Shown here one piece after another: positions 4,901 to 45,748 of a stretch of 58,116 bases of DNA. The first letter of the stretch is position 1; the number at the start of each line of letters is the position of its first letter. The stretch is from UHGV virus genome UHGV-0195737, one strand, 5' to 3'. The notes under the pieces are model-generated. The model was not told the DNA's origin, did no database searches, and saw nothing but the letters and a program-made list of their open reading frames with translations. This DNA comes from a virus. Both the position numbers and the translations under genes were made by a program.

Positions 4901-5909
4901 CAGGCCAATCACGGCGATCAGCACCCAGGCCAATAAGAGATAGTGAATCTTCTGATAGTGATTTTGCTTGCTCCATGTAGGTTTTGGCGTTCGCTTCCGA
5001 AAGTGCGGCGGCGGTGGCTGATTCTGCGGCGGCGGCGGCATTAGCTGCAATTTCTTGTTCGTCTTCTGCAACATTGGCGGCGCTTGTTTCGGCAGCAGTG
5101 GCGGCTTCTGTAGCGATGGTGGCTTGTTCGGTTGCTGTGGTCGCTGATTCTGCGGCGTTATTCATCCAGATGTACGCCGTGCCGCGATGATCTTTTGCCT
5201 CTGCGGCGGCGGCCGCGGCGGCGGTGGCTTGTTCGGTCGCTACGGCTGCCTGTTCAGTTGCGACGGTTGCTTGCGCGGCGGCTTCGTCACGGGCCGTTTC
5301 GGTAGCGGTCTGCGCGGTCTGCGCGGCGCTGGCGGCATTAGTGGCGATGGTGGCTTGTTCGGTTGCCGTGGTCGCCTGCGTGGTGGCGGTGGCGGCATGT
5401 TTCCCAGCCAGTACGCTGTAATCTTCTGCGGCATTTTTCGCGGTAATAGCTTCATCCCGCGCGGCGGCGGTTGTTTCAACGTCTGCGGCGGTCGCGGCGG
5501 CGTTGGCGTTTGATTGCGCTGTTTCTGCCTGAATAGCGGCTAACAGTGCTTCAACCTGCGCGGCATCACCATAATTTTTCCAGTATTCGACGGCAGCATA
5601 GATCTCTGATTCTTGTCCGGTGAAATAGCGCAATGCCTCCGCTACGTCCTGGGCCAGCCCGTCAACCGAGATCGAATCGCACAGCAAAATACTGTAAGCA
5701 GTACCCGCCGGAATATCCGGTGATGCTGCCGGGGTTACAGACAATTCCGTTTCACTGACAATTTCAGTGATAGAAAAGATCTGAATGGGGTTACTTTTTA
5801 CGATAACAGTACACCCCACGCGGATCATGGATAGCGGCGCTTTAAAATTCGTACCCGTCCCGGTCAGCGTGTTACCGGATACGGCAATGCTTCCAATGGT
5901 GTAGATCAT
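1932..5909 (-). CDS. Long tail fibre protein, repeat-rich
   Basis: 1325 aa; Ala/Thr/Gln-rich low-complexity segment; two tandem copies of a ~250-aa module (TRHARK-EVSR, HYPC-GALVV-YYPYN). Confidence 0.65.
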   Translation of the reverse strand: MIYTIGSIAVSGNTLTGTGTNFKAPLSMIRVGCTVIVKSNPIQIFSITEIVSETELSVTPAASPDIPAGTAYSILLCDSISVDGLAQDVAEALRYFTGQESEIYAAVEYWKNYGDAAQVEALLAAIQAETAQSNANAAATAADVETTAAARDEAITAKNAAEDYSVLAGKHAATATTQATTATEQATIATNAASAAQTAQTATETARDEAAAQATVATEQAAVATEQATAAAAAAAEAKDHRGTAYIWMNNAAESATTATEQATIATEAATAAETSAANVAEDEQEIAANAAAAAESATAAALSEANAKTYMEQAKSLSEDSLSLIGLGADRRDWPDCTVNPSAYIGFVRLEEATATGFPSIASGEVYLVGWLARGDGLIINGCFVGTNTRSLYTYMYNNADGTYGWTRHARKDEVSRLLQTSNSTGETQLWDGVGQNYIFVNNTGWGAYSVDGAIKLGINYGGTGGGNAGQARTNLQVMYEQKTDLADTDLDTLTGEYSGFYRQKLNAQATTDRHYPCNNAGALVVIGNSANTDSGCTQIYYPYNYNASFYLRSFDAATFTWSEWARFLSSGVLLGDIGLTNAPRDCADISGNPAAYIGFIRIREGVTGWPEDVADGEAYLTGFISVNDGSPSYTGIFQGWGTRSLYTYRWSESTGPQWTRHARKNEVSRFNQSGSNRTVVYSMDDSTAGCYLQLDATGRWGYYSPVDNCWKALAIEQGGTGAVTVDEARENLKVDRLAQWGSETWVYNADSSMRLGLTGTSWGCYSDTQSKWIPLDLSHGGTGANDAATARTNLAAMHEQKSSLADTDLDTLTAAYSGVYWQGASSKATTELHYPCKYGGALVVLKNGNYTNGATQLYYPYNSTGLYYMRTYYANLETWTDWAKFESDPLIHEEAPFPDVWIPFNDSLDMLAGFAPGYKKVTVNDETTSIPSDKVVGFARASTATYINKSGVLTIADIDEPRFEREGLLIEGTRTNFFINGSVPASWGRSTNITATAETDSYGFLYGKFVIDDSAVGGTGACNMASVITANVIDTTQHDEQYVTVSCRFRSSSDVRLRIRFAGGEDTSSLAFLCDAYIKLSDMTVTKAGGGADNITVSVTTDNITGWNRAVVTYKSTVTLVTAQIQLAPVSAFVSGDYMELATPQVELGPNASSYICSGSTPSTRASDLVSITTKNNLARPPFSFLIELHKDWFRAPNAAPRVFDIANANTGQGVIAAVNRGSDKYYMSLSKSDGAYINSAAASVLPNKAIIGAVVKDDDTFHVIMNGVAVADATCSYGGVTQDKNIRFGGQTSTGERHLFGHIRNFRIWHKALTDGQLFEKV
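4990..5520. repeat. GC-rich tandem coding repeats inside fibre gene
   Basis: Repeated GGTGGCTTGTTCGGT-type units encoding AT(E/A)QAT-like repeats. Confidence 0.5.
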
Positions 5910-31424: not shown

Positions 31425-31891
31425 TCGCAGACGGCATATTCAACATCACGGCGGTTAATTAAACCTTGCCATTTCTGACCACCAGCATATATCCAGCGTT
31501 TAAGCTGGGCGCACGCCTCTGATTTCTTGCCGTCATTGAGTAGTTTTAGTAAGGTTGATGTTTTGAAGTTGGTAGCGCCTACGTTATAGGCGAATGAGTA
31601 AAGCGCGGCGCGGGTAAAGTCGGAGATCTCGACCTTGATATATGGGTCAATAGCTTTCGCCACTTTGTGAAGATCTTTATTGAGTAATGCCTCGCATTCC
31701 GCAGGGGTGTAAGCCTTACCCAACATAATGTCTTTTCCGGTGTGACCATAACAAACGGTCCAGACACCGATAACATCACGATAGGGATCGTACTCCACGC
31801 CCTCCAGCGGTTTAATCATCACGGCAGCAATTGCTATTGCCCCACCCGCCGCTGCCGCCAGAATCTGGCGCTTTAGCGTTTTGCTGATCAT
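31400..31891 (-). CDS. SAR endolysin (T4-lysozyme-like, GH24)
   Basis: N-terminal Ala/Gly-rich SAR helix; lysozyme-type EG...D...T...GHT signature. Confidence 0.8.
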
Positions 31892-32100
31892 AATTTTTTC
31901 ATCTCCAGGTTGTGCCTTTCCTGCTCCCGCTTATTCTCCTGTCGCTTGTAATACCAGTTAACCGCGAAAGTGCCTATCGTGCACCCGATACCAACTATCA
32001 CGGCTATGTCATTCAGGGATAAACCGCCAATTATGGTTGTCAGAATACCAGCTACATAGCTTGCGGCCTCCCTTGTTCGCGTAATTAACGTGGCGATCAT
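31888..32100 (-). CDS. Holin (pinholin-like, class II)
   Basis: 70 aa, two TM helices, charged C-terminus; overlaps endolysin start. Confidence 0.65.
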
Positions 32101-32110
32101 TTATTCCCCC

Positions 32111-32140
32111 AACAAAGCAAAAACCCGGCGCGGGGCCGGG
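32111..32140 (-). terminator. Late-leader terminator (tR'-like)
   Basis: CCCGGCCCCGCGCCGGG stem followed by TTTTTGCTTTGTT, just upstream of holin. Confidence 0.55.
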
Positions 32141-32379
32141 TGAATACAATTTCGCATTGTTAGGAAATATTTTAATCCGTTTGTTTAACCTATACAAACA
32201 CGGCTTATAGCTACAAATCACCAACCTTGCGCCAGGTCCGCTTCGATGCCTTTGATGGTGTTTACATATTCGCGTTTCATTTTCTTATCTCCCCTTCCGT
32301 CTTTCCTTGACTTATATATAACAAAACGGCACTGCCGGAACAATGCCATTTTGTAAACTTTGCGGGGTAGATCACGCTT
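32141..32379 (-). promoter_or_regulatory. Putative late promoter / Q-utilisation region
   Basis: Only sizeable non-coding gap between Q and holin; contains CCATTTTGT motif and a 20-aa SD-preceded mini-ORF. Confidence 0.3.
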
Positions 32380-32604
32380 TTATTCATCCTGCTTAAAGGC
32401 CACTACAACCGCGCGATCGTCATTCTGAATCAGCCACCAGCCACGCGCCTTGCTGGGCGCTGCATACCATAAGTGACCGTAAGCATCTGTGACGACTAAA
32501 AACGGATTTTTCGGTAATCCGCCTGGCTTTTCCGCTTCGTACTGGCAACCGTCCTCGAAACAATCAAGATCAGATCCGTGACACGTTAAAATAGTCATTA
32601 TCAT
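32380..32604 (-). CDS. Small protein, paralogue family member 1
   Basis: PKNPFLVVTDAYGHLWYA matches family motif; start at internal ATG. Confidence 0.4.
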   Translation of the reverse strand: MIMTILTCHGSDLDCFEDGCQYEAEKPGGLPKNPFLVVTDAYGHLWYAAPSKARGWWLIQNDDRAVVVAFKQDE

Positions 32605-32849
32605 ACCCCCACATACGAAAATGCAGCAAAAGCGCCGCCACCAGTACGCGCATAAACAAGCGCCGTGCCACACCCCATCTTATAAAAGCGCCATAGCTGG
32701 CCCTGGTCGTCAGTAATGGCGTGGATATATTCCTGATCCTTCGCGTCAACCAATGCCGCGCTGACTTCGTAGATCTTGCCATTCTTAAAAAACGCGCTGC
32801 ATCGTGAATACGTGCATTGATACCTGTGATTCCGACTCATAACAACCAC
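32601..32849 (-). CDS. Small protein, paralogue family member 2
   Basis: FFKNGKIYEV...AITDDQGQLWRF. Confidence 0.45.
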   Translation of the reverse strand: MVVMSRNHRYQCTYSRCSAFFKNGKIYEVSAALVDAKDQEYIHAITDDQGQLWRFYKMGCGTALVYARTGGGAFAAFSYVGV

Positions 32850-33101
32850 CTATTCCGGTTTACTGCCTTCGCGGTCACAAAATACAGCTACGCCCTGGAA
32901 GTCATGCACGATGCGATAATAAACCTTGTCAGTGTGTGGAAAGCGTGTGACATAAGCAAAATAAACCTTATCATCATCGCCAGTTATCGCCATCGCCTCA
33001 CCGCCCGGTGCACCGTGGATTTGAACGCCGCAATAAATCTTTCCTTCTTCGAATATGTCGCGATCGCGCGTCTGTACTACCTCAAAATATAAATGTTTCA
33101 T
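32850..33101 (-). CDS. Small protein, paralogue family member 3
   Basis: FEEGKIYCGV...AITGDDDKVYFAY; SD AAAGGGG. Confidence 0.45.
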   Translation of the reverse strand: MKHLYFEVVQTRDRDIFEEGKIYCGVQIHGAPGGEAMAITGDDDKVYFAYVTRFPHTDKVYYRIVHDFQGVAVFCDREGSKPE

Positions 33102-33111
33102 GGTTACCCCT

Positions 33112-33324
33112 TTAATAACGTTCGAAGCTGGCAACAAAACCCACGCCGGATATTTCGCCGCCCTGATAGCTTGGCCTGAACATCCAGATCTCATCATGGT
33201 TATCAATTAAGGCGAGGCAGTTATTCATTGTGTGATTTTCATTGCCATAAACGATGTGAACGTCATAAATTCGCCCAATCGTGAAAACGCTGTCATTGCT
33301 TGAGTATGAACATTTAACCTGCAT
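33112..33324 (-). CDS. Small protein, paralogue family member 4
   Basis: FTIGRIYDV...ALIDNHDEIWMF. Confidence 0.45.
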   Translation of the reverse strand: MQVKCSYSSNDSVFTIGRIYDVHIVYGNENHTMNNCLALIDNHDEIWMFRPSYQGGEISGVGFVASFERY

Positions 33325-33598
33325 TATCAGCCACCTTTAAATAATTTTTTACATCAACATCAGCCGGGTATCTGGAAAATTGCGCTAACCATTGTCCGGT
33401 AATGTTTTTCACCAGTGCATAATCAAGATCGCCGCAGTAGAATACCTGATACATTACCCCTTCGTTATCACTCGCAACGAATACCATCGGGTCAGTAGTC
33501 GCATTGCGCAATCTGTGAATTGTGTACGCCTGCCCCGTGGTAAATTTATATTCGTTACAAGTTGTGCGGCAAAACATCCGATCAAAATAGCTTTCCAT
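33314..33598 (-). CDS. Small protein, paralogue family member 5
   Basis: FTTGQAYTI...VASDNEGVMYQVFY. Confidence 0.45.
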   Translation of the reverse strand: MESYFDRMFCRTTCNEYKFTTGQAYTIHRLRNATTDPMVFVASDNEGVMYQVFYCGDLDYALVKNITGQWLAQFSRYPADVDVKNYLKVADNAG

Positions 33599-33849
33599 CA
33601 GAATATTCCCTTATAATCGACCGTGTATTTTGCTATCAGATTCCAGTCGCAATAATTAAGCATGTCGCGCGGTTGCCAACCTTTCATCCCGACCGCGCCG
33701 CGCGCAGCGTGACGACGATAATCATCGTTATAGTCAGCCATGCACCACGGCTGGAGAACAAACATATAATTTGCTTCATTAACCAGGATAGCCACACGCT
33801 TTCCTGTTGCTTTATCTTTCGCTCTGAAATAATTCACTTTCATTTTCAT
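33598..33849 (-). CDS. Hypothetical small protein
   Basis: 83-aa ORF, start overlaps upstream stop. Confidence 0.4.
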   Translation of the reverse strand: MKMKVNYFRAKDKATGKRVAILVNEANYMFVLQPWCMADYNDDYRRHAARGAVGMKGWQPRDMLNYCDWNLIAKYTVDYKGIF

Positions 33850-34061
33850 TTCAATACCTCGTCGATCAACATTTCTTCTTCCAGGTTAGCCGGACGTTTA
33901 CGGAATATCCCGGCAAAAACCAGATCATCAAGTAGGTCTTTACGCTTGAATAACCACTCCTTCATTATCACCCCGTCGTCACTGCGGCATACGACGCCGT
34001 TTTTCAGAAAATAAAAGGTGTGGGTATTCGTCTGTAGGTATAAATCCTCGTAAACGTCCAT
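33846..34061 (-). CDS. Hypothetical small protein
   Basis: 71-aa ORF in compact same-strand array. Confidence 0.4.
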   Translation of the reverse strand: MDVYEDLYLQTNTHTFYFLKNGVVCRSDDGVIMKEWLFKRKDLLDDLVFAGIFRKRPANLEEEMLIDEVLK

Positions 34062-34065
34062 GATA

Positions 34066-34293
34066 TTAACCCTCGACTACTTGCAGGCCGCGCCCCTTAT
34101 CACCTACGAAATCCCCCAGGCTGAATGTATACGACCACGCCGGGTTAATGTAGTGATCATCAGCACCATGAGCGATGAGGTCTTTACCCATAATGACGCA
34201 GGTCACATCATCAGAATGAACTACGTCTACCACTTCCCCTACTACGCGTTTTAATGATGGGTATCCGTGGTCATGCAGGAATTTAACTTTCAT
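34066..34293 (-). CDS. Hypothetical small protein
   Basis: Start set at internal ATG (MKVKF). Confidence 0.4.
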   Translation of the reverse strand: MKVKFLHDHGYPSLKRVVGEVVDVVHSDDVTCVIMGKDLIAHGADDHYINPAWSYTFSLGDFVGDKGRGLQVVEG

Positions 34294-34576
34294 ATTTTTT
34301 ACCCTTATAAGTAACAGCATCAGCGATCAACAATACCGCCAACATTTCACCGTCATGTAACGGATCTGGAATAGCAAAAAATATGTCGCTGTTTTTGTCC
34401 GGCACTACGACACGCATATTTCCCTGTTTATCTTCATGAACAAACCACGGCTTTTCGTGTGGTTCAAACATACCAAAAAGCAATTTAAGATCTATTTCTT
34501 CACCCTTCGTGAATAACGATACATCCGTTGTGGCGATAACCAACGCTTTCTTATCTGCTGCTTTCTTCGTTTTCAT
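34283..34576 (-). CDS. Hypothetical small protein
   Basis: 97-aa ORF. Confidence 0.4.
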   Translation of the reverse strand: MKTKKAADKKALVIATTDVSLFTKGEEIDLKLLFGMFEPHEKPWFVHEDKQGNMRVVVPDKNSDIFFAIPDPLHDGEMLAVLLIADAVTYKGKKYES

Positions 34577-34806
34577 TCCTCTGCCTCCCAGCGGTCAATG
34601 CTGATTAAAAAATCACGGATAGCGTGGCGCTCGTCGTGCGTCGGTTTGCGCTTCCGGTAAATCTTGAAATCAAACCACTCCTTTTCTTGCTCGAAATCCA
34701 GGTCGTAAGCAAGCGCCTCAATATACCCGCAGTCGTGATACTGGTACGCCACGCCAGCACGAACAAAAAAGCGGGTTTTATCCCGCTTGTGCTCATAGAT
34801 ACGCAT
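34573..34806 (-). CDS. Hypothetical small protein
   Basis: ATG with SD GGGGTGA; track start is GTG. Confidence 0.4.
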   Translation of the reverse strand: MRIYEHKRDKTRFFVRAGVAYQYHDCGYIEALAYDLDFEQEKEWFDFKIYRKRKPTHDERHAIRDFLISIDRWEAEE

Positions 34807-34816
34807 ATTCACCCCG

Positions 34817-35047
34817 CTATGCAGTTGTGTAGCTGTCGGTTAATATTTCATCTTTCATTCTGGCAAGCTGGGCGATGTTCATCGTGTAGCCATCGTCAGA
34901 GAAAAGCCACTCCGCAGCTTTGCGACGAAAAACAATATCATCATGGTTATGCGTCCATGTAGCGATCACTACGCGCTTTCCATCAGTGGCAAACATACTT
35001 AACTCATTGTCAACTACGTCGATAGCACGCCAGATCTTTAGCTCCAT
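34817..35047 (-). CDS. Hypothetical small protein
   Basis: 76-aa ORF with SD GGAGG. Confidence 0.4.
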   Translation of the reverse strand: MELKIWRAIDVVDNELSMFATDGKRVVIATWTHNHDDIVFRRKAAEWLFSDDGYTMNIAQLARMKDEILTDSYTTA

Positions 35048-35403
35048 GATTTACCTCCGTAAATTTTAAATAATTCCCGTGCTTCCTGGTCTTCAAAGAG
35101 ATTCATATGCAGGTTATGCAGGCGGCGCATTGTGCGGAAGCGTGGTCGGAATTCTTGACCCCTTTTAATGTATTTATCGCCAATTGAATAAATATGACCG
35201 TATGCATACCATCTATTCCCGACCCAAATTAGATAAATTTCACCCTCATAATTAAATTTGATTGTAAGCTCGTCAACCTCCATTATTAATCCTTTATCGA
35301 GAATATCGTTTAGCATCGAATCCCATTCTTTAAGAAATGGTTGTTGATAAAAGCCAAAAATTGTATTGAATACATGGCAAAGGTAATCAATGATTATTTG
35401 CAT
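35038..35403 (-). CDS. Hypothetical protein
   Basis: 121-aa ORF. Confidence 0.4.
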   Translation of the reverse strand: MQIIIDYLCHVFNTIFGFYQQPFLKEWDSMLNDILDKGLIMEVDELTIKFNYEGEIYLIWVGNRWYAYGHIYSIGDKYIKRGQEFRPRFRTMRRLHNLHMNLFEDQEARELFKIYGGKSWS

Positions 35404-35407
35404 ATTA

Positions 35408-35620
35408 TCACCACATCATATAGTAAATGTTATCATCAGCTAATGCGTCGGCGTCTTCCTGCGTCATATGCCGCGCTTCCAGGAAGAAATCATCATCATG
35501 CCATTCACTAACAAAAAATCGCGCCCACTTGCGGCGCTGGCGCTTATTGTGTCGCAGATCATCAAAAGCCTTTAACGCTTTGTCATACGCCCTTACCAGG
35601 CGTTTACGGTTACTTTTCAT
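35408..35620 (-). CDS. Hypothetical basic small protein
   Basis: 70 aa, Arg/Lys-rich N-terminus. Confidence 0.4.
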   Translation of the reverse strand: MKSNRKRLVRAYDKALKAFDDLRHNKRQRRKWARFFVSEWHDDDFFLEARHMTQEDADALADDNIYYMMW

Positions 35621-35924
35621 CGCTCCCCCACCTTAACATCCAATTCACATCACATTTAATTGCGAATACTTTCACCGGATCAGGGCCGAATAATGGATGT
35701 GTGATAATTTTCACTTCATACCCAAAATAAGGAAGGTTTATGATCCGGTGCGCTTCGTGGCTGGCTGGATACCCCAGCTTAATAATCAGGCGTTCATATT
35801 CCCGCCCCTCCAGGCGCTTGCGCCAATAGTCATTATAAAGCCGGTATTCCTCCACCTTCTTTCCCGCCCGGATGGCGTAAAAGTATTCTCCTTTCAGGTT
35901 TAAATGTAGATCTTTACTTGCCAT
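35610..35924 (-). CDS. ASCH/PUA-like domain protein
   Basis: LKGEYFYAIRAGKKVEEYR pattern typical of ASCH-like folds; first ATG (track start is TTG). Confidence 0.4.
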   Translation of the reverse strand: MASKDLHLNLKGEYFYAIRAGKKVEEYRLYNDYWRKRLEGREYERLIIKLGYPASHEAHRIINLPYFGYEVKIITHPLFGPDPVKVFAIKCDVNWMLRWGSDEK

Positions 35925-36186
35925 CGCTATGATCCTGTAAACAGTCGTTATAGCCTTCAATATATCCGGTTAATCCGGTATTACTTACTGACCATTCAGC
36001 AGTCCGGCGCTTGATGGCCTTGTCCATCGTCATTTCGTCACCCGGCCCGCCAGGCTCAATATATTTTTTCAAATCCCTTGCTATCCACGCCCGTAATTGT
36101 TGTGTATCACCACACAACCGCGCTGATAACGTCAGGTCATTAACAAGTTTTGCAAAAAGATGTTCTTTTAATTTAGGCTTCATCAT
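35914..36186 (-). CDS. Hypothetical protein
   Basis: ATG with SD GGGGTGA; track start is GTG. Confidence 0.4.
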   Translation of the reverse strand: MMKPKLKEHLFAKLVNDLTLSARLCGDTQQLRAWIARDLKKYIEPGGPGDEMTMDKAIKRRTAEWSVSNTGLTGYIEGYNDCLQDHSDGK

Positions 36187-36373
36187 CGTCACCCCGTTTG
36201 TAAATATGGACTGGCTTAACAGGGATGGCAGGTAACTCGCCGTCGTGTAACGCGCTTGCTATTTTCAAAATTAAATGCGCTTCTGTACCAGTGACTTTCT
36301 TACACCATGCGCCGCCTGTTTTATCTTCGAACAAGATAACAGCGAACTGATCGTTTATTTCCAGCTTATCCAT
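36173..36373 (-). CDS. Hypothetical small protein
   Basis: 66 aa; start overlaps Q stop. Confidence 0.4.
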   Translation of the reverse strand: MDKLEINDQFAVILFEDKTGGAWCKKVTGTEAHLILKIASALHDGELPAIPVKPVHIYKRGDDDEA

Positions 36374-37095
36374 TATTCACCCCGTGTCACTCGCTTGATT
36401 TCGCTTTCCGCGCGGGCTTCCTCTTTGAATAGCTCCGCTATGGCGTCCTCATAGAAAACCCGATATTTTTTCCACCACGTTGATCGGCTTACCGGAAAAA
36501 CAAGCTGATTAACCGCCTGCCGAACAAGATCTACCGGGAAACGTGAGTACCCACGCCCGCCGCAGTGCTGGCACGTTTTGAAAACTGGCATTTCCGCCGC
36601 GTTGCTGGCTGCTTTATCCGGTATCTCGCCGCGCCCTTTGCATTGTTTACAATGGTTGCGAACTTTCCCATGCCCCTTGCATTTTTTGCAAAGGTGTTTT
36701 TCCCCGTAGTCGTCAAACGTAAATTTATATCCGCCGCACTCCATACAAGTTTTTTCCGTAGCGGCGCTTTGGCAATAATCCCTAAACGCGAAAACGGCAA
36801 CAAGAATAATAAGTCCATTGCGCTGATCCTCGTTTAACTCCATGACGTATTCGTAATCTTTTGCCATAGCCCTTAAACGCTCTGTAAGCAATACTACGGC
36901 CTTGTGTTTTTCGGCTTGCGATAGTTCCATCTTCCCTAAAAAAGCGCTATAGCCAAGCTCTACGCGCGATTGCGCCATACCAGCGGCGGTAAGTGCATCC
37001 GTCGTATTAAGCGCATCCGGGGATGTTCCCCGGCTTTCGTCTGACAATCGCGGTGATTTAGGAAAGTGGAATTTTAGAATGGATTCTAAATTCAT
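36373..37095 (-). CDS. Q: Late-gene antiterminator Q
   Basis: N-terminus close to lambda Q as recalled (LESxxKFHxPKSPxxSD, AxGMAQS); CxxCxGxG zinc-finger repeats. Confidence 0.75.
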   Translation of the reverse strand: MNLESILKFHFPKSPRLSDESRGTSPDALNTTDALTAAGMAQSRVELGYSAFLGKMELSQAEKHKAVVLLTERLRAMAKDYEYVMELNEDQRNGLIILVAVFAFRDYCQSAATEKTCMECGGYKFTFDDYGEKHLCKKCKGHGKVRNHCKQCKGRGEIPDKAASNAAEMPVFKTCQHCGGRGYSRFPVDLVRQAVNQLVFPVSRSTWWKKYRVFYEDAIAELFKEEARAESEIKRVTRGE

Positions 37096-39402: not shown

Positions 39403-39902
39403 TTCCTGCCCTCAAACGTAAAATAGCGGCGCATGATGATAGTAATCACCGTTACCGCTGCCATTTTTGAGATGAATTGCATAGCTGATATTTCCGGCAT
39501 AAATGCCACAAACGATAGCGTAGGAAAAATTAACGCATCACCAATGGCGGACGCTATATTTGCAGGCCAGCGTTTAGAATCGAAATCACCAGGTAAAACC
39601 CGGTAAACGCCGCCAGAAATAAGCGCACCGGAAACAACCGCGACAAACGACGCGATCGCCACCATTCCGGCGTCGTAATTTATCAGCACCGTGATCGCGC
39701 CAGCTATAGCGCATGTTGTAGCCGACCATTTCAGGCCGCCGTCATATAACAGGAAGTCACGGATCATCATATTGACACACACAGCGGCTACCGTGGTGAC
39801 TGGAATTACCCACGGGCCGCAATGGTTAACAATAAGATTGATGATCACAAAAACGGCGACATAAACGCAGGCTAATAACCTGTCAATTGTCACCCTTTTC
39901 AT
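39399..39902 (-). CDS. Multi-pass inner membrane protein
   Basis: 4-5 predicted TM helices; start at internal ATG with SD GAAGGA. Confidence 0.45.
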   Translation of the reverse strand: MKRVTIDRLLACVYVAVFVIINLIVNHCGPWVIPVTTVAAVCVNMMIRDFLLYDGGLKWSATTCAIAGAITVLINYDAGMVAIASFVAVVSGALISGGVYRVLPGDFDSKRWPANIASAIGDALIFPTLSFVAFMPEISAMQFISKMAAVTVITIIMRRYFTFEGRK

Positions 39903-40374
39903 TTTTATGATCCTTCGGTGAATACAATAAAGCCTCTTTATTAAACCGCCAGCCGTTACCAAGCTGGAGGCTACCATTCATTATTACTTCGCCACTAGCG
40001 ATCAGGTCGCCTGGTATCGAGGTTTTTTTACAGCCGCAATTTAACGGCATATCAAAAACAGCCTGTTTCTTACTTTGTTCTTCCTCCCGATCCGTTAATA
40101 TTTGCTCTGCTTTTAGCGCGTTATAGCTAATCAAATCAATCAACGTGTCTGTCGGATCTGTTCCGTTGCTTAAAATGGCCCCTAAACGCGCTTCTTTGAG
40201 GCAAATCAGTAGATCCCATACATCAAGCGGGGTTAAATCGGCTCCCTTCTTAGCGTTGTAAATAGTGGCTATTTTTGGCGCTGATTTTTCCTCTTTTTTG
40301 TCGTAGCCGTTTTGCTTACCTCTTTGCTCTATGGTTTCCGCTGCGAGTCTTAATAAATCTGCTGCCTTAGTCAT
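39883..40374 (-). CDS. Hypothetical protein
   Basis: 163-aa ORF between membrane protein and Dam genes. Confidence 0.4.
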   Translation of the reverse strand: MTKAADLLRLAAETIEQRGKQNGYDKKEEKSAPKIATIYNAKKGADLTPLDVWDLLICLKEARLGAILSNGTDPTDTLIDLISYNALKAEQILTDREEEQSKKQAVFDMPLNCGCKKTSIPGDLIASGEVIMNGSLQLGNGWRFNKEALLYSPKDHKNEKGDN

Positions 40375-45107: not shown

Positions 45108-45748
45108 TAATTAATCTCCCCGTTAAGCTCTTTTAAGCGAATGTCATAAACGTCTTTCGCTTTTTGTTGTTGTTCTGAATCTTTAGGCAGTAGCTTCCAG
45201 CACTTGCCGAAGATCTCGCGCAATTTGTTCGCGTCCGGCGCTTTCGCTGCCGCATCACAGAAACGTGCTAACACTTCATCAGGATTTGGTGGCGCTTTCT
45301 GCTGCTGCGGTTGTTGTTTTGGCGGGTTTTTCTGCTGGCGTGGCTGTTGATTTGTCTGTTTAGCATAAGCATCAGTATCAGCGTCTTTCGCGTCGTCTAT
45401 GCAGAATAAACCGTTCAAGGCATATTTCCGCGCGTAACTTGATGTTGCTCCTGTTAGCTGGCTTGCATCCATACCGCGCTTGTTTTCTTCCTCCCTTGCG
45501 TAAGCAGTTACCGCTATTGCGTCCTCGCCGTCGCTTAATGTCGCAGTGGCTTTAACGTAATAACGCTCACCAATCAGGATAATTTCATCATTCAGCGTTA
45601 GTGTGACATTTTGAAGTAGCGGTTTAACCGCTTCCAGAATATCCTCCGCTGAACGATAGCTATAACCCCCGAAGTTATTACGCTGATTCTTAGGCGCGTT
45701 AAGCGTCTGCTGAATCGTCCACAGTTTCTTGTGTAGCTCTGTTTTCAC
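45107..45748 (-). CDS. erf: Erf-family single-strand annealing protein
   Basis: GGYSYRSAEDI-type ERF signature; Gln/Pro-rich linker; GTG start with SD AAGGAG. Confidence 0.65.
   Translation of the reverse strand: MKTELHKKLWTIQQTLNAPKNQRNNFGGYSYRSAEDILEAVKPLLQNVTLTLNDEIILIGERYYVKATATLSDGEDAIAVTAYAREEENKRGMDASQLTGATSSYARKYALNGLFCIDDAKDADTDAYAKQTNQQPRQQKNPPKQQPQQQKAPPNPDEVLARFCDAAAKAPDANKLREIFGKCWKLLPKDSEQQQKAKDVYDIRLKELNGEIN

Follow-up and report, generated by a model that had tools for sequence, protein, structure and literature searches.

The 58,116-nt viral genome UHGV-0195737 (the whole stretch analyzed, hereafter called the window) carries on its minus strand an island of 16 small genes, named g01 to g16 in order of transcription, which lies between the gene for a lambda-type late antiterminator, Q, and the lysis cassette. 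On balance, we lean toward reading this island as flexible cargo of the early operon that continues past Q and ends at the late promoter, with its last five genes, g12 to g16, encoding protein-binding modules. The five appear from profile comparisons to be old tandem paralogs, and one of them is predicted to fold like Gp54 of phage Bas11, a protein that a bacterial immune system senses. The definition of this paralog family, its predicted kinship in fold with Gp54, and the inferred separation, in this phage group, of a lambda-type Q from its late promoter by 2–7 kb of cargo are new. The window (positions 1–58116) itself appears to be a whole phage genome.

Working in the direction of transcription, the locus comprises genes for NinG (38373–37678) and RusA (37681–37274), an open reading frame (ORF) of 60 amino acids, Q, and then the 16 small ORFs, which span 36373 to 32380; a gap of 279 nt separates g16 from the genes for the holin, lysozyme, and Rz. 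Start codons within the island were chosen by reference to ribosome-binding sites, and one is present at all 16 starts. Packing is tight: 10 of the 16 junctions, that between Q and g01 included, are overlaps of 1–11 nt, and the other six are gaps of 2–10 nt. The G+C content is 44.7% in the island and 47.0% in the remaining window. The same 16 genes were called independently on two metagenome contigs bearing the island, with equal lengths except that g02 is one codon longer. For each gene, between 2 and 11 of the fetched related loci hold an ortholog, and the median ratio of nonsynonymous to synonymous substitution rates (dN/dS) relative to those orthologs is 0.05–0.19 for all 16, at dS values of 0.4–1.2. 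Because of these orthologs and ratios, the island ORFs are taken to be real coding genes under purifying selection and not chance ORFs. A preliminary description of this DNA, made from its letters alone, had proposed 16 compact small ORFs between Q and the lysis genes, and the ribosome-binding sites, dN/dS ratios, and independent gene calls all uphold it; the possibility it raised, that the ORFs might not be conserved as coding sequence in related phages, proved not to be the case.

Nucleotide matches to the island together with 25 kb of structural genes were found in only seven phage records (mEp010, mEp013, mEp021, mEp044, mEp515, mEp554, and MagusPhagus), at 80–88% identity, and the gene order around Q is shared with them. 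Prophages in the same identity range are present in 35 of 5426 complete Escherichia coli genomes. By these matches, the window phage is a temperate coliphage of the mEpimmI (mEp021-like) group. Its describers regard that group as Nus-dependent yet non-lambdoid (Negrete-Mendez et al. 2025, PMC11893012), and the lambdoid framing of the preliminary description thus holds for Q, which is of the lambda type, but not for the phage as its describers class it. About half of mEpimmI genes are considered 'flexible' and are concentrated in variable regions; the same paper covers core and flexible genes and 'variable regions' and contains no analysis of this island, of the paralog family, or of the position of the late promoter (PMC11893012). 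All 16 island genes have orthologs among published mEpimmI members, and the island is an already sequenced but unanalyzed variable region of a published group.

Gene content in the interval between Q and the holin varies widely, from 8 small genes in mEp021 and 13 in mEp013 to ~24 in mEp010, 25 in MagusPhagus, and ~30 in strain KKa019. Orthologs of g06, g07, g09, g10, and g11 are present in every relative examined; the other 11 genes, all five paralogs included, are variably present. The content would turn over among relatives by exchange at gene boundaries. Two metagenome assemblies carry an identical island, on a 57,380-bp JGI contig (sample 3300045988) and an ENA scaffold, respectively; at >90% identity the island was found in no complete E. 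coli RefSeq genome.

Pairwise identities among g12 to g16 are only 9–26%, and their relationship was examined by several routes. Smith–Waterman comparisons against shuffled sequences gave z-scores of 8.4 for g13 with g15, 5.0 for g12 with g13, and 4.7 for g14 with g16, and hhalign comparison of small profiles made from local orthologs gave probabilities of 81% for g13 with g15 and 46% for g14 with g15; a value of 99.6% for g12 against the family is circular, since g12 is inside the family profile. Iterative profile searches were run over the window and ten related loci, 468 ORFs in total: begun from g16, the search converged within the window on exactly g12 to g16, and seeds from other island genes did not grow. 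Each subfamily was then left out in turn, and a profile built from the other four was compared with all 403 ORFs of the window. In all five runs the omitted gene was the top match outside the training set, among ~399 candidates (E-values of 5e-9 for g15, 5e-6 for g13, 9e-4 for g14, 5e-3 for g12, and 0.1 for g16). Judged by these searches, five first ranks among ~399 ORFs cannot be chance. The joint alignment is collinear, with an invariant F-x-x-G-x-x-Y, a common hydrophobic-[TD]-D-x-x-G-x-[LVM]-[WY] hairpin, and a C-terminal A-x-F, and the motif pair is absent from all other window ORFs. The motifs as written in the preliminary description, the first of them F-x-x-G-[KRQ]-[IA]-Y, are too narrow, since g16 has FEDGCQY and F-x-x-G-x-x-Y alone is invariant, but its claim of five diverged tandem paralogs at 33598–32380 is borne out by alignment and by the leave-one-out profile searches. 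No direct repeats of >24 nt were found at the DNA level within the island; the duplications are therefore old, and recent duplication is ruled out. We thus regard g12 to g16, on the strength of their sequence profiles, as true, old, and strongly diverged paralogs, with only marginal support for g16.

Local profile matches cluster into eight subfamilies across eleven genomes, two of which (D and H) were admitted only at marginal E-values. The order of the array is kept as [G or C]-F-E-A-B, with copy numbers ranging from zero in mEp021 up to six per phage elsewhere. Beyond these loci, a word-indexed search returned 60 proteins, all of them close orthologs of the five, none with a Pfam domain, and every one with a named source from E. 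coli. An exhaustive search of 1.8 billion representatives gave 28 matches and added only one true member to those 60; its other additions were long repeat proteins from metagenomes (335 to ~2000 amino acids, one with six repeats) that match only the D-x-x-G-x-[IL]-W hairpin and were judged non-homologous. As far as such searches indicate, the family is essentially absent outside the mEpimmI group. One distant member, mEp044_46 (fetched-locus positions 234–530, subfamily H, E-value 1e-4), is encoded ahead of Q, between the RusA gene and the 60-amino acid ORF, and the family is therefore not strictly limited to the island after Q. In E. coli strain PAR the g13 ortholog is split into two overlapping ORFs (fetched-locus positions 1858–2075) and is probably a frameshifted pseudogene, which fits dispensable paralogs. 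The island gene g08 was considered as a sixth paralog (z-score of 5.3 with g13) but was rejected at a leave-one-out E-value of 0.04 and an hhalign probability of 6%.

The structure of the family was predicted using AlphaFold2 on a 26-sequence family alignment with g15 as the target. The model is all-beta and six-stranded, with a mean predicted local distance difference test score (pLDDT) of 81.7 and a predicted template modeling score of 0.71, and it has the small six-stranded barrel that characterizes Gp54. One family member, g15, is thus predicted to fold like the rare six-stranded beta-barrel of Gp54 from phage Bas11 (PDB 9AXB), which is the only solved look-alike of the modeled barrel. No sequence homology between the family and Gp54 was detected by hhalign (0.2%), and the two belong to different PHROGs (phrog_7421 for Gp54, and phrog_31142 and phrog_4927 for the family). 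Gp54 does bear F-K-K-G-I-E-I and G-L-T-W, ordered like the motifs of the family, and the CapRel escape site G24 is within the first of them. Among 1236 ORFs, a combined motif pattern was matched only by the family, Gp54, and two other Bas11 ORFs, but as this pattern was written after Gp54 had been inspected it is a lead and not a test. Even close homologs of Gp54 fail to activate CapRel (Zhang et al. 2024, PMC11578894). Gp54 is the product of a single-copy gene in a virulent T1-like phage, whereas the window has five diverged tandem copies in a temperate one. Two motif-bearing ORFs of Bas11 lie at 39780–39980 and 45147–45338 of the fetched Bas11 sequence; a second small Bas11 protein with the motif pair, bas11_0071, gives a weak match to the family profile (E-value 3e-4 in a small database).

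Over 99% of its length, the window Q shares 33.6% identity with lambda Q (E-value 2e-30) and 32.8% with P22 gp23, and by these matches it is a lambda-type late-gene antiterminator. In both lambda and P22 the late promoter, PR', is found ~45–80 nt past the Q stop codon as TTGACT-N17-TAAATT-N6-AACGAT, and the P22 terminator follows at +31 to +59; the P22 elements are annotated P-late, qut, and t-late. In lambda, AACGAT causes the sigma-dependent pausing at which Q is loaded. No such layout follows the window Q, whose stop codon overlaps the start of g01. The 90 nt preceding the holin gene, however, read TTGTAT-N17-TAAAAT-N7-AACAAT-N14-ACCCGGCCCCGCGCCGGGT-TTTTTGCTTTG, and MAFFT aligns the −10 hexamer and AACAAT of this block with the corresponding lambda and P22 elements. 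From the A-rich stretch on, the block is nearly invariant in all relatives, whereas adjacent coding DNA is only ~85% identical. A −10 hexamer combined with the AACRAT pause motif occurs once in 58 kb, against 0.10 expected by chance, and the hairpin before the holin is the strongest terminator-like site of the region. Promoter-like sites on the island are no commoner than in shuffled sequence. Two upstream classes of the promoter block exist among relatives, and no covariation of Q length variants with them was apparent. Lying upstream of the PR'-like block, the island is most likely part of the early operon, to judge from this arrangement of sequence elements.

Two further hairpins lie on the coding strand. 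That in the coding sequence of g07 resembles an intrinsic terminator, and 11 of 12 related loci have it unchanged; mEp010 has a compensatory pair of synonymous changes (CGG to CGC and ACC to ACG) that keeps the stem, and selection therefore seems to act on the RNA structure in g07 in addition to the protein. For the hairpin after g16, a terminator is annotated at the equivalent site of mEp044, mEp554, and mEp010. A terminator-like hairpin in g04 (35537–35521) was discarded because its T-run is not conserved in relatives.

The nin region of lambda consists of small, packed, partly dispensable genes between P and Q, in an N-antiterminated early operon with interspersed terminators. The window likewise has small packed genes, with NinG and RusA directly upstream, and the island would extend that nin-type run (NinG, RusA, the 60-amino acid ORF, and Q) beyond Q, ending at a lambda/P22-type late promoter, pause element, and terminator directly before the holin. 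The last early gene of lambda and P22 is Q, with PR' within ~80 nt of it, whereas here the run of genes extends 4 kb past Q (2–7 kb in relatives). The 16 genes would be co-transcribed with Q from an early promoter by polymerase modified by an N-like antiterminator, and this polymerase would read through the hairpins in g07 and after g16. The N-like antiterminator of the group is Gp17, documented for mEp021 (PMC11893012). Translation of this single polycistronic unit would be coupled and would precede the onset of late-gene expression. The 1-nt overlap of Q and g01, a largest gap of 10 nt, and the background level of promoter-like sites are all consistent with a single operon.

We further infer that each copy among g12 to g16 would be a stand-alone protein-binding module directed at a different host protein, for takeover or counter-defense. 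That these five are host-interaction proteins acting by binding is put forward with modest confidence, by analogy with Gp54, because they are small and single-domain, probably early, conserved yet gained and lost, diverged in tandem, and predicted to have a Gp54-type fold. An anti-defense role for the island is plausible, the only lead toward it being the predicted fold match. The five genes common to all relatives examined may serve phage development instead. A bolder version, in which the barrels form a diversifying array, is doubtful: they might be decoys or inhibitors of host immune sensors, or the patterns that CapRel-type sensors detect, and the phage group would then have opened a cargo bay between Q and the late promoter.

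Several observations count against early cargo with binding modules. The −35 hexamer of the promoter-like block, TTGTAT, is weak (a match at three of six positions) and has not been kept by one class of relatives, which is the chief weak point of the promoter assignment, and it is possible that a promoter is buried in the 3' end of Q. Scans against Pfam, NCBIfam, and PADLOC gave nothing above threshold for any of the 16 proteins, and none of them matches a family of known function. Within the paralog family, g16 is non-significant on its own in the leave-one-out series and is a marginal member; the model made from its own subfamily is poor (pLDDT of 60) and does not match Gp54, even though its strands and the g15 strands are collinear. 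Kinship with Gp54 is one of predicted fold only, and the binding or counter-defense role would be an extrapolation from Gp54.

Were the true PR' instead located in or at the 3' terminus of Q, late-operon cargo comparable to stx would be the better description of the island, and Q-modified polymerase would transcribe it along with the lysis and virion genes. The positions of the lambda and P22 late promoters, within ~80 nt of the Q stop, favor such an arrangement, as does the annotation of the mEp021 ortholog of g10 as a virion protein by mass spectrometry (PMC11893012), which fits late expression. We nevertheless consider it quite improbable: there is no intergenic space after Q, and in relatives, too, the next gene abuts it; no minus-strand promoter-like site was found in Q or at the Q/g01 junction; and the sole lambda-like −10 with AACRAT in 58 kb precedes the holin, beside the strongest terminator. 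In addition, a PR' placed after Q would meet its first strong terminator only 1.6–4 kb downstream, and expression of the island would be constitutive. Cargo of the stx type lies downstream of PR' and the terminator tR' and is Q-dependent. The comparison with stx drawn in the preliminary description therefore stands for position, as the island is likewise between Q and the holin and is variable among relatives, but not for regulation, since the PR'-like block here is downstream of the cargo, immediately before the holin; moreover, the window contains no tRNA or Rfam RNA and no toxin-like genes. A different role, with the small genes working in the development of the phage itself (for example in DNA metabolism, regulation, or assembly) and not in dealings with host defenses, is unlikely for the island as a whole but deserves some credence. 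Several lambda nin genes do serve phage development, the island prolongs the NinG-RusA run, one ortholog has been reported in virions, and g06, g07, g09, g10, and g11 are very strongly conserved in every relative. The remaining 11 genes, however, five paralogs included, are variably present among close relatives and are therefore dispensable for development; mEp021 has no paralog at all, and presence/absence turnover of diverged paralogs is the pattern expected of host-interaction genes.

Two other explanations fare worse. Morons expressed from the prophage, whether superinfection-exclusion or defense genes serving the lysogen, are frequent in the variable regions of temperate phages, and the site adjoins a region that may be constitutively transcribed. 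However, the island genes have overlapping packing and no promoters or terminators of their own, so that the usual definition of a moron does not apply; no PADLOC match was obtained for the 16 proteins, no membrane or lipoprotein features were noted, and the exclusion lipoproteins of the group are located elsewhere (PMC11893012). We rate this as very unlikely. It is more improbable still that g12 to g16 are unrelated small beta-rich proteins whose motifs arose by chance or convergence. The low pairwise identities would allow it, as would the marginal links (an E-value of 0.1 for g16, and bridging steps of ~1e-4 in a small database) and the lack of any repeat at the DNA level, but an omitted gene ranked first in five independent tests, the members are contiguous with their order kept in relatives, their alignment is collinear in length and motifs that no other window ORF shares, and the joint alignment yields a confident single model.

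Small uncharacterized phage genes are where most new host-takeover and anti-defense proteins emerge, and the island offers a compact set of them: 16 genes under selection, a presence/absence series over ~40 sequenced relatives, and a five-member paralog family tied by its predicted fold to the sole solved example of a rare barrel that contacts a bacterial immune protein. The diverged copies would be ready-made specificity variants, provided that the family does bind host factors. Should the barrels indeed be a diversifying array, the orphan Gp54 fold would gain a function, and a temperate phage would be seen to stockpile variants of one binding scaffold as hosts do sensors. The regulatory layout, in which a lambda-type Q appears to be parted from its promoter by 2–7 kb of cargo, is instructive in itself. 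If none of these readings holds, the island would be an unremarkable accessory region in a phage group already published.

Table 1. Genes and sequence elements of the interval between Q and the holin gene (aa, amino acids).
Feature	Coordinates	Strand	Remarks
Q	36373..37095	-	240 aa; PF03589 Antiterm, 99.8 bits (cut-off 26.7); stop overlaps g01 start by 1 nt
g01	36173..36373	-	66 aa; flexible; phrog_35000; 8 orthologs; dN/dS 0.16
g02	35914..36183	-	89 aa; phrog_29262; dN/dS 0.10
g03	35610..35924	-	104 aa; possibly ASCH/PUA-like; phrog_625; dN/dS 0.07
g04	35408..35620	-	70 aa; basic; phrog_8758; dN/dS 0.19
g05	35038..35403	-	121 aa; phrog_16975; dN/dS 0.07; identical protein on two metagenome contigs
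g06	34817..35047	-	76 aa; in all relatives examined, mEp021 included
g07	34573..34806	-	77 aa; in all relatives; holds conserved terminator-like hairpin
Hairpin in g07 coding sequence	34769..34788	-	intrinsic-terminator-like, with T-run; −11.2 kcal/mol
g08	34283..34576	-	97 aa; flexible; not a supported paralog
g09	34066..34293	-	75 aa; in all relatives; phrog_5009; dN/dS 0.05
g10	33846..34061	-	71 aa; in all relatives; mEp021 ortholog mEp021_41
g11	33598..33849	-	83 aa; in all relatives; phrog_38609; dN/dS 0.07
g12	33314..33598	-	94 aa; paralog, subfamily G
g13	33112..33324	-	70 aa; paralog, subfamily F
g14	32850..33101	-	83 aa; paralog, subfamily E
g15	32601..32840	-	79 aa; paralog, subfamily A; modeled six-stranded beta-barrel
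g16	32380..32598	-	72 aa; paralog, subfamily B, weakest member
Hairpin after g16	32317..32350	-	11-bp stem, weak T-run; −13.3 kcal/mol, z −3.6
20-aa ORF	32218..32280	-	strong ribosome-binding site; at recombination/deletion joint
Late-promoter-like block	32112..32197	-	−35 TTGTAT 32197-32192; −10 TAAAAT 32174-32169; pause-like AACAAT 32161-32156
Terminator stem and T-run in late-promoter-like block	32141-32123	-	−13.4 kcal/mol; starts ~20 nt after AACAAT
Holin	31888..32100	-	first lysis-cassette gene; PF16080, 67 bits

Individual island proteins gave few clues in database searches. PHROGs matches were to families of unknown function only, and PDB sequence searches with g02, g05, g08, g10, and the profile of the paralog family returned nothing significant; a match of g08 to a siderophore-binding protein in the PDB (E-value 0.01) was judged to be chance. 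The preliminary description had singled out one gene as ASCH/PUA-like, and the gene in question is g03. The naming of its RefSeq orthologs as 'ASCH domain-containing' or 'RNA-binding' fits that suggestion, as does its best PDB sequence match, the ASCH protein PH0355 (E-value 0.38). Against the Pfam ASCH profile PF04266, however, g03 scores 13.4 bits (cut-off 21.2; E-value 0.13), and its N-terminal 25 residues align only to profile positions 1–25, just a quarter of the domain. An ASCH/PUA-like nature for g03 is thus plausible from sequence but below threshold.

The ortholog of g10 in mEp021, mEp021_41 (fetched-locus positions 5043–5291), is labeled 'virion structural protein' from virion mass spectrometry. 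The label is odd for a presumed early gene, and the protein could be either packaged or a contaminant.

Five junctions (g01/g02, g02/g03, g03/g04, g08/g09, and g12/g13) have the same form, an 11-nt overlap reading ATG-N5-TAA, and that between g05 and g06 is a 10-nt version of it. The ribosome-binding site at each of the five sits within the 3' end of the preceding gene. Such uniformity suggests either a shared means of translational coupling or a recombination joint.

Most relatives carry a further module of ~2–2.5 kb between the g16 ortholog and the holin gene, which the window is without: window positions 32700–32276 align with the segment after g16 in relatives, and positions 32206–32099 align with the ~100 nt preceding their holin genes. 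The 20-amino acid ORF lies at the joint. Its ribosome-binding site and ATG are those of the 46-amino acid gene (MNANAKYPAWVF...) that opens the absent module in relatives, and its 3' end corresponds, in another reading frame, to the end of the last module gene in strain UMNK88. Judged from these matches, the ORF is probably a remnant or scar of deletion or recombination rather than a gene, and it would mark the place where the module was lost.

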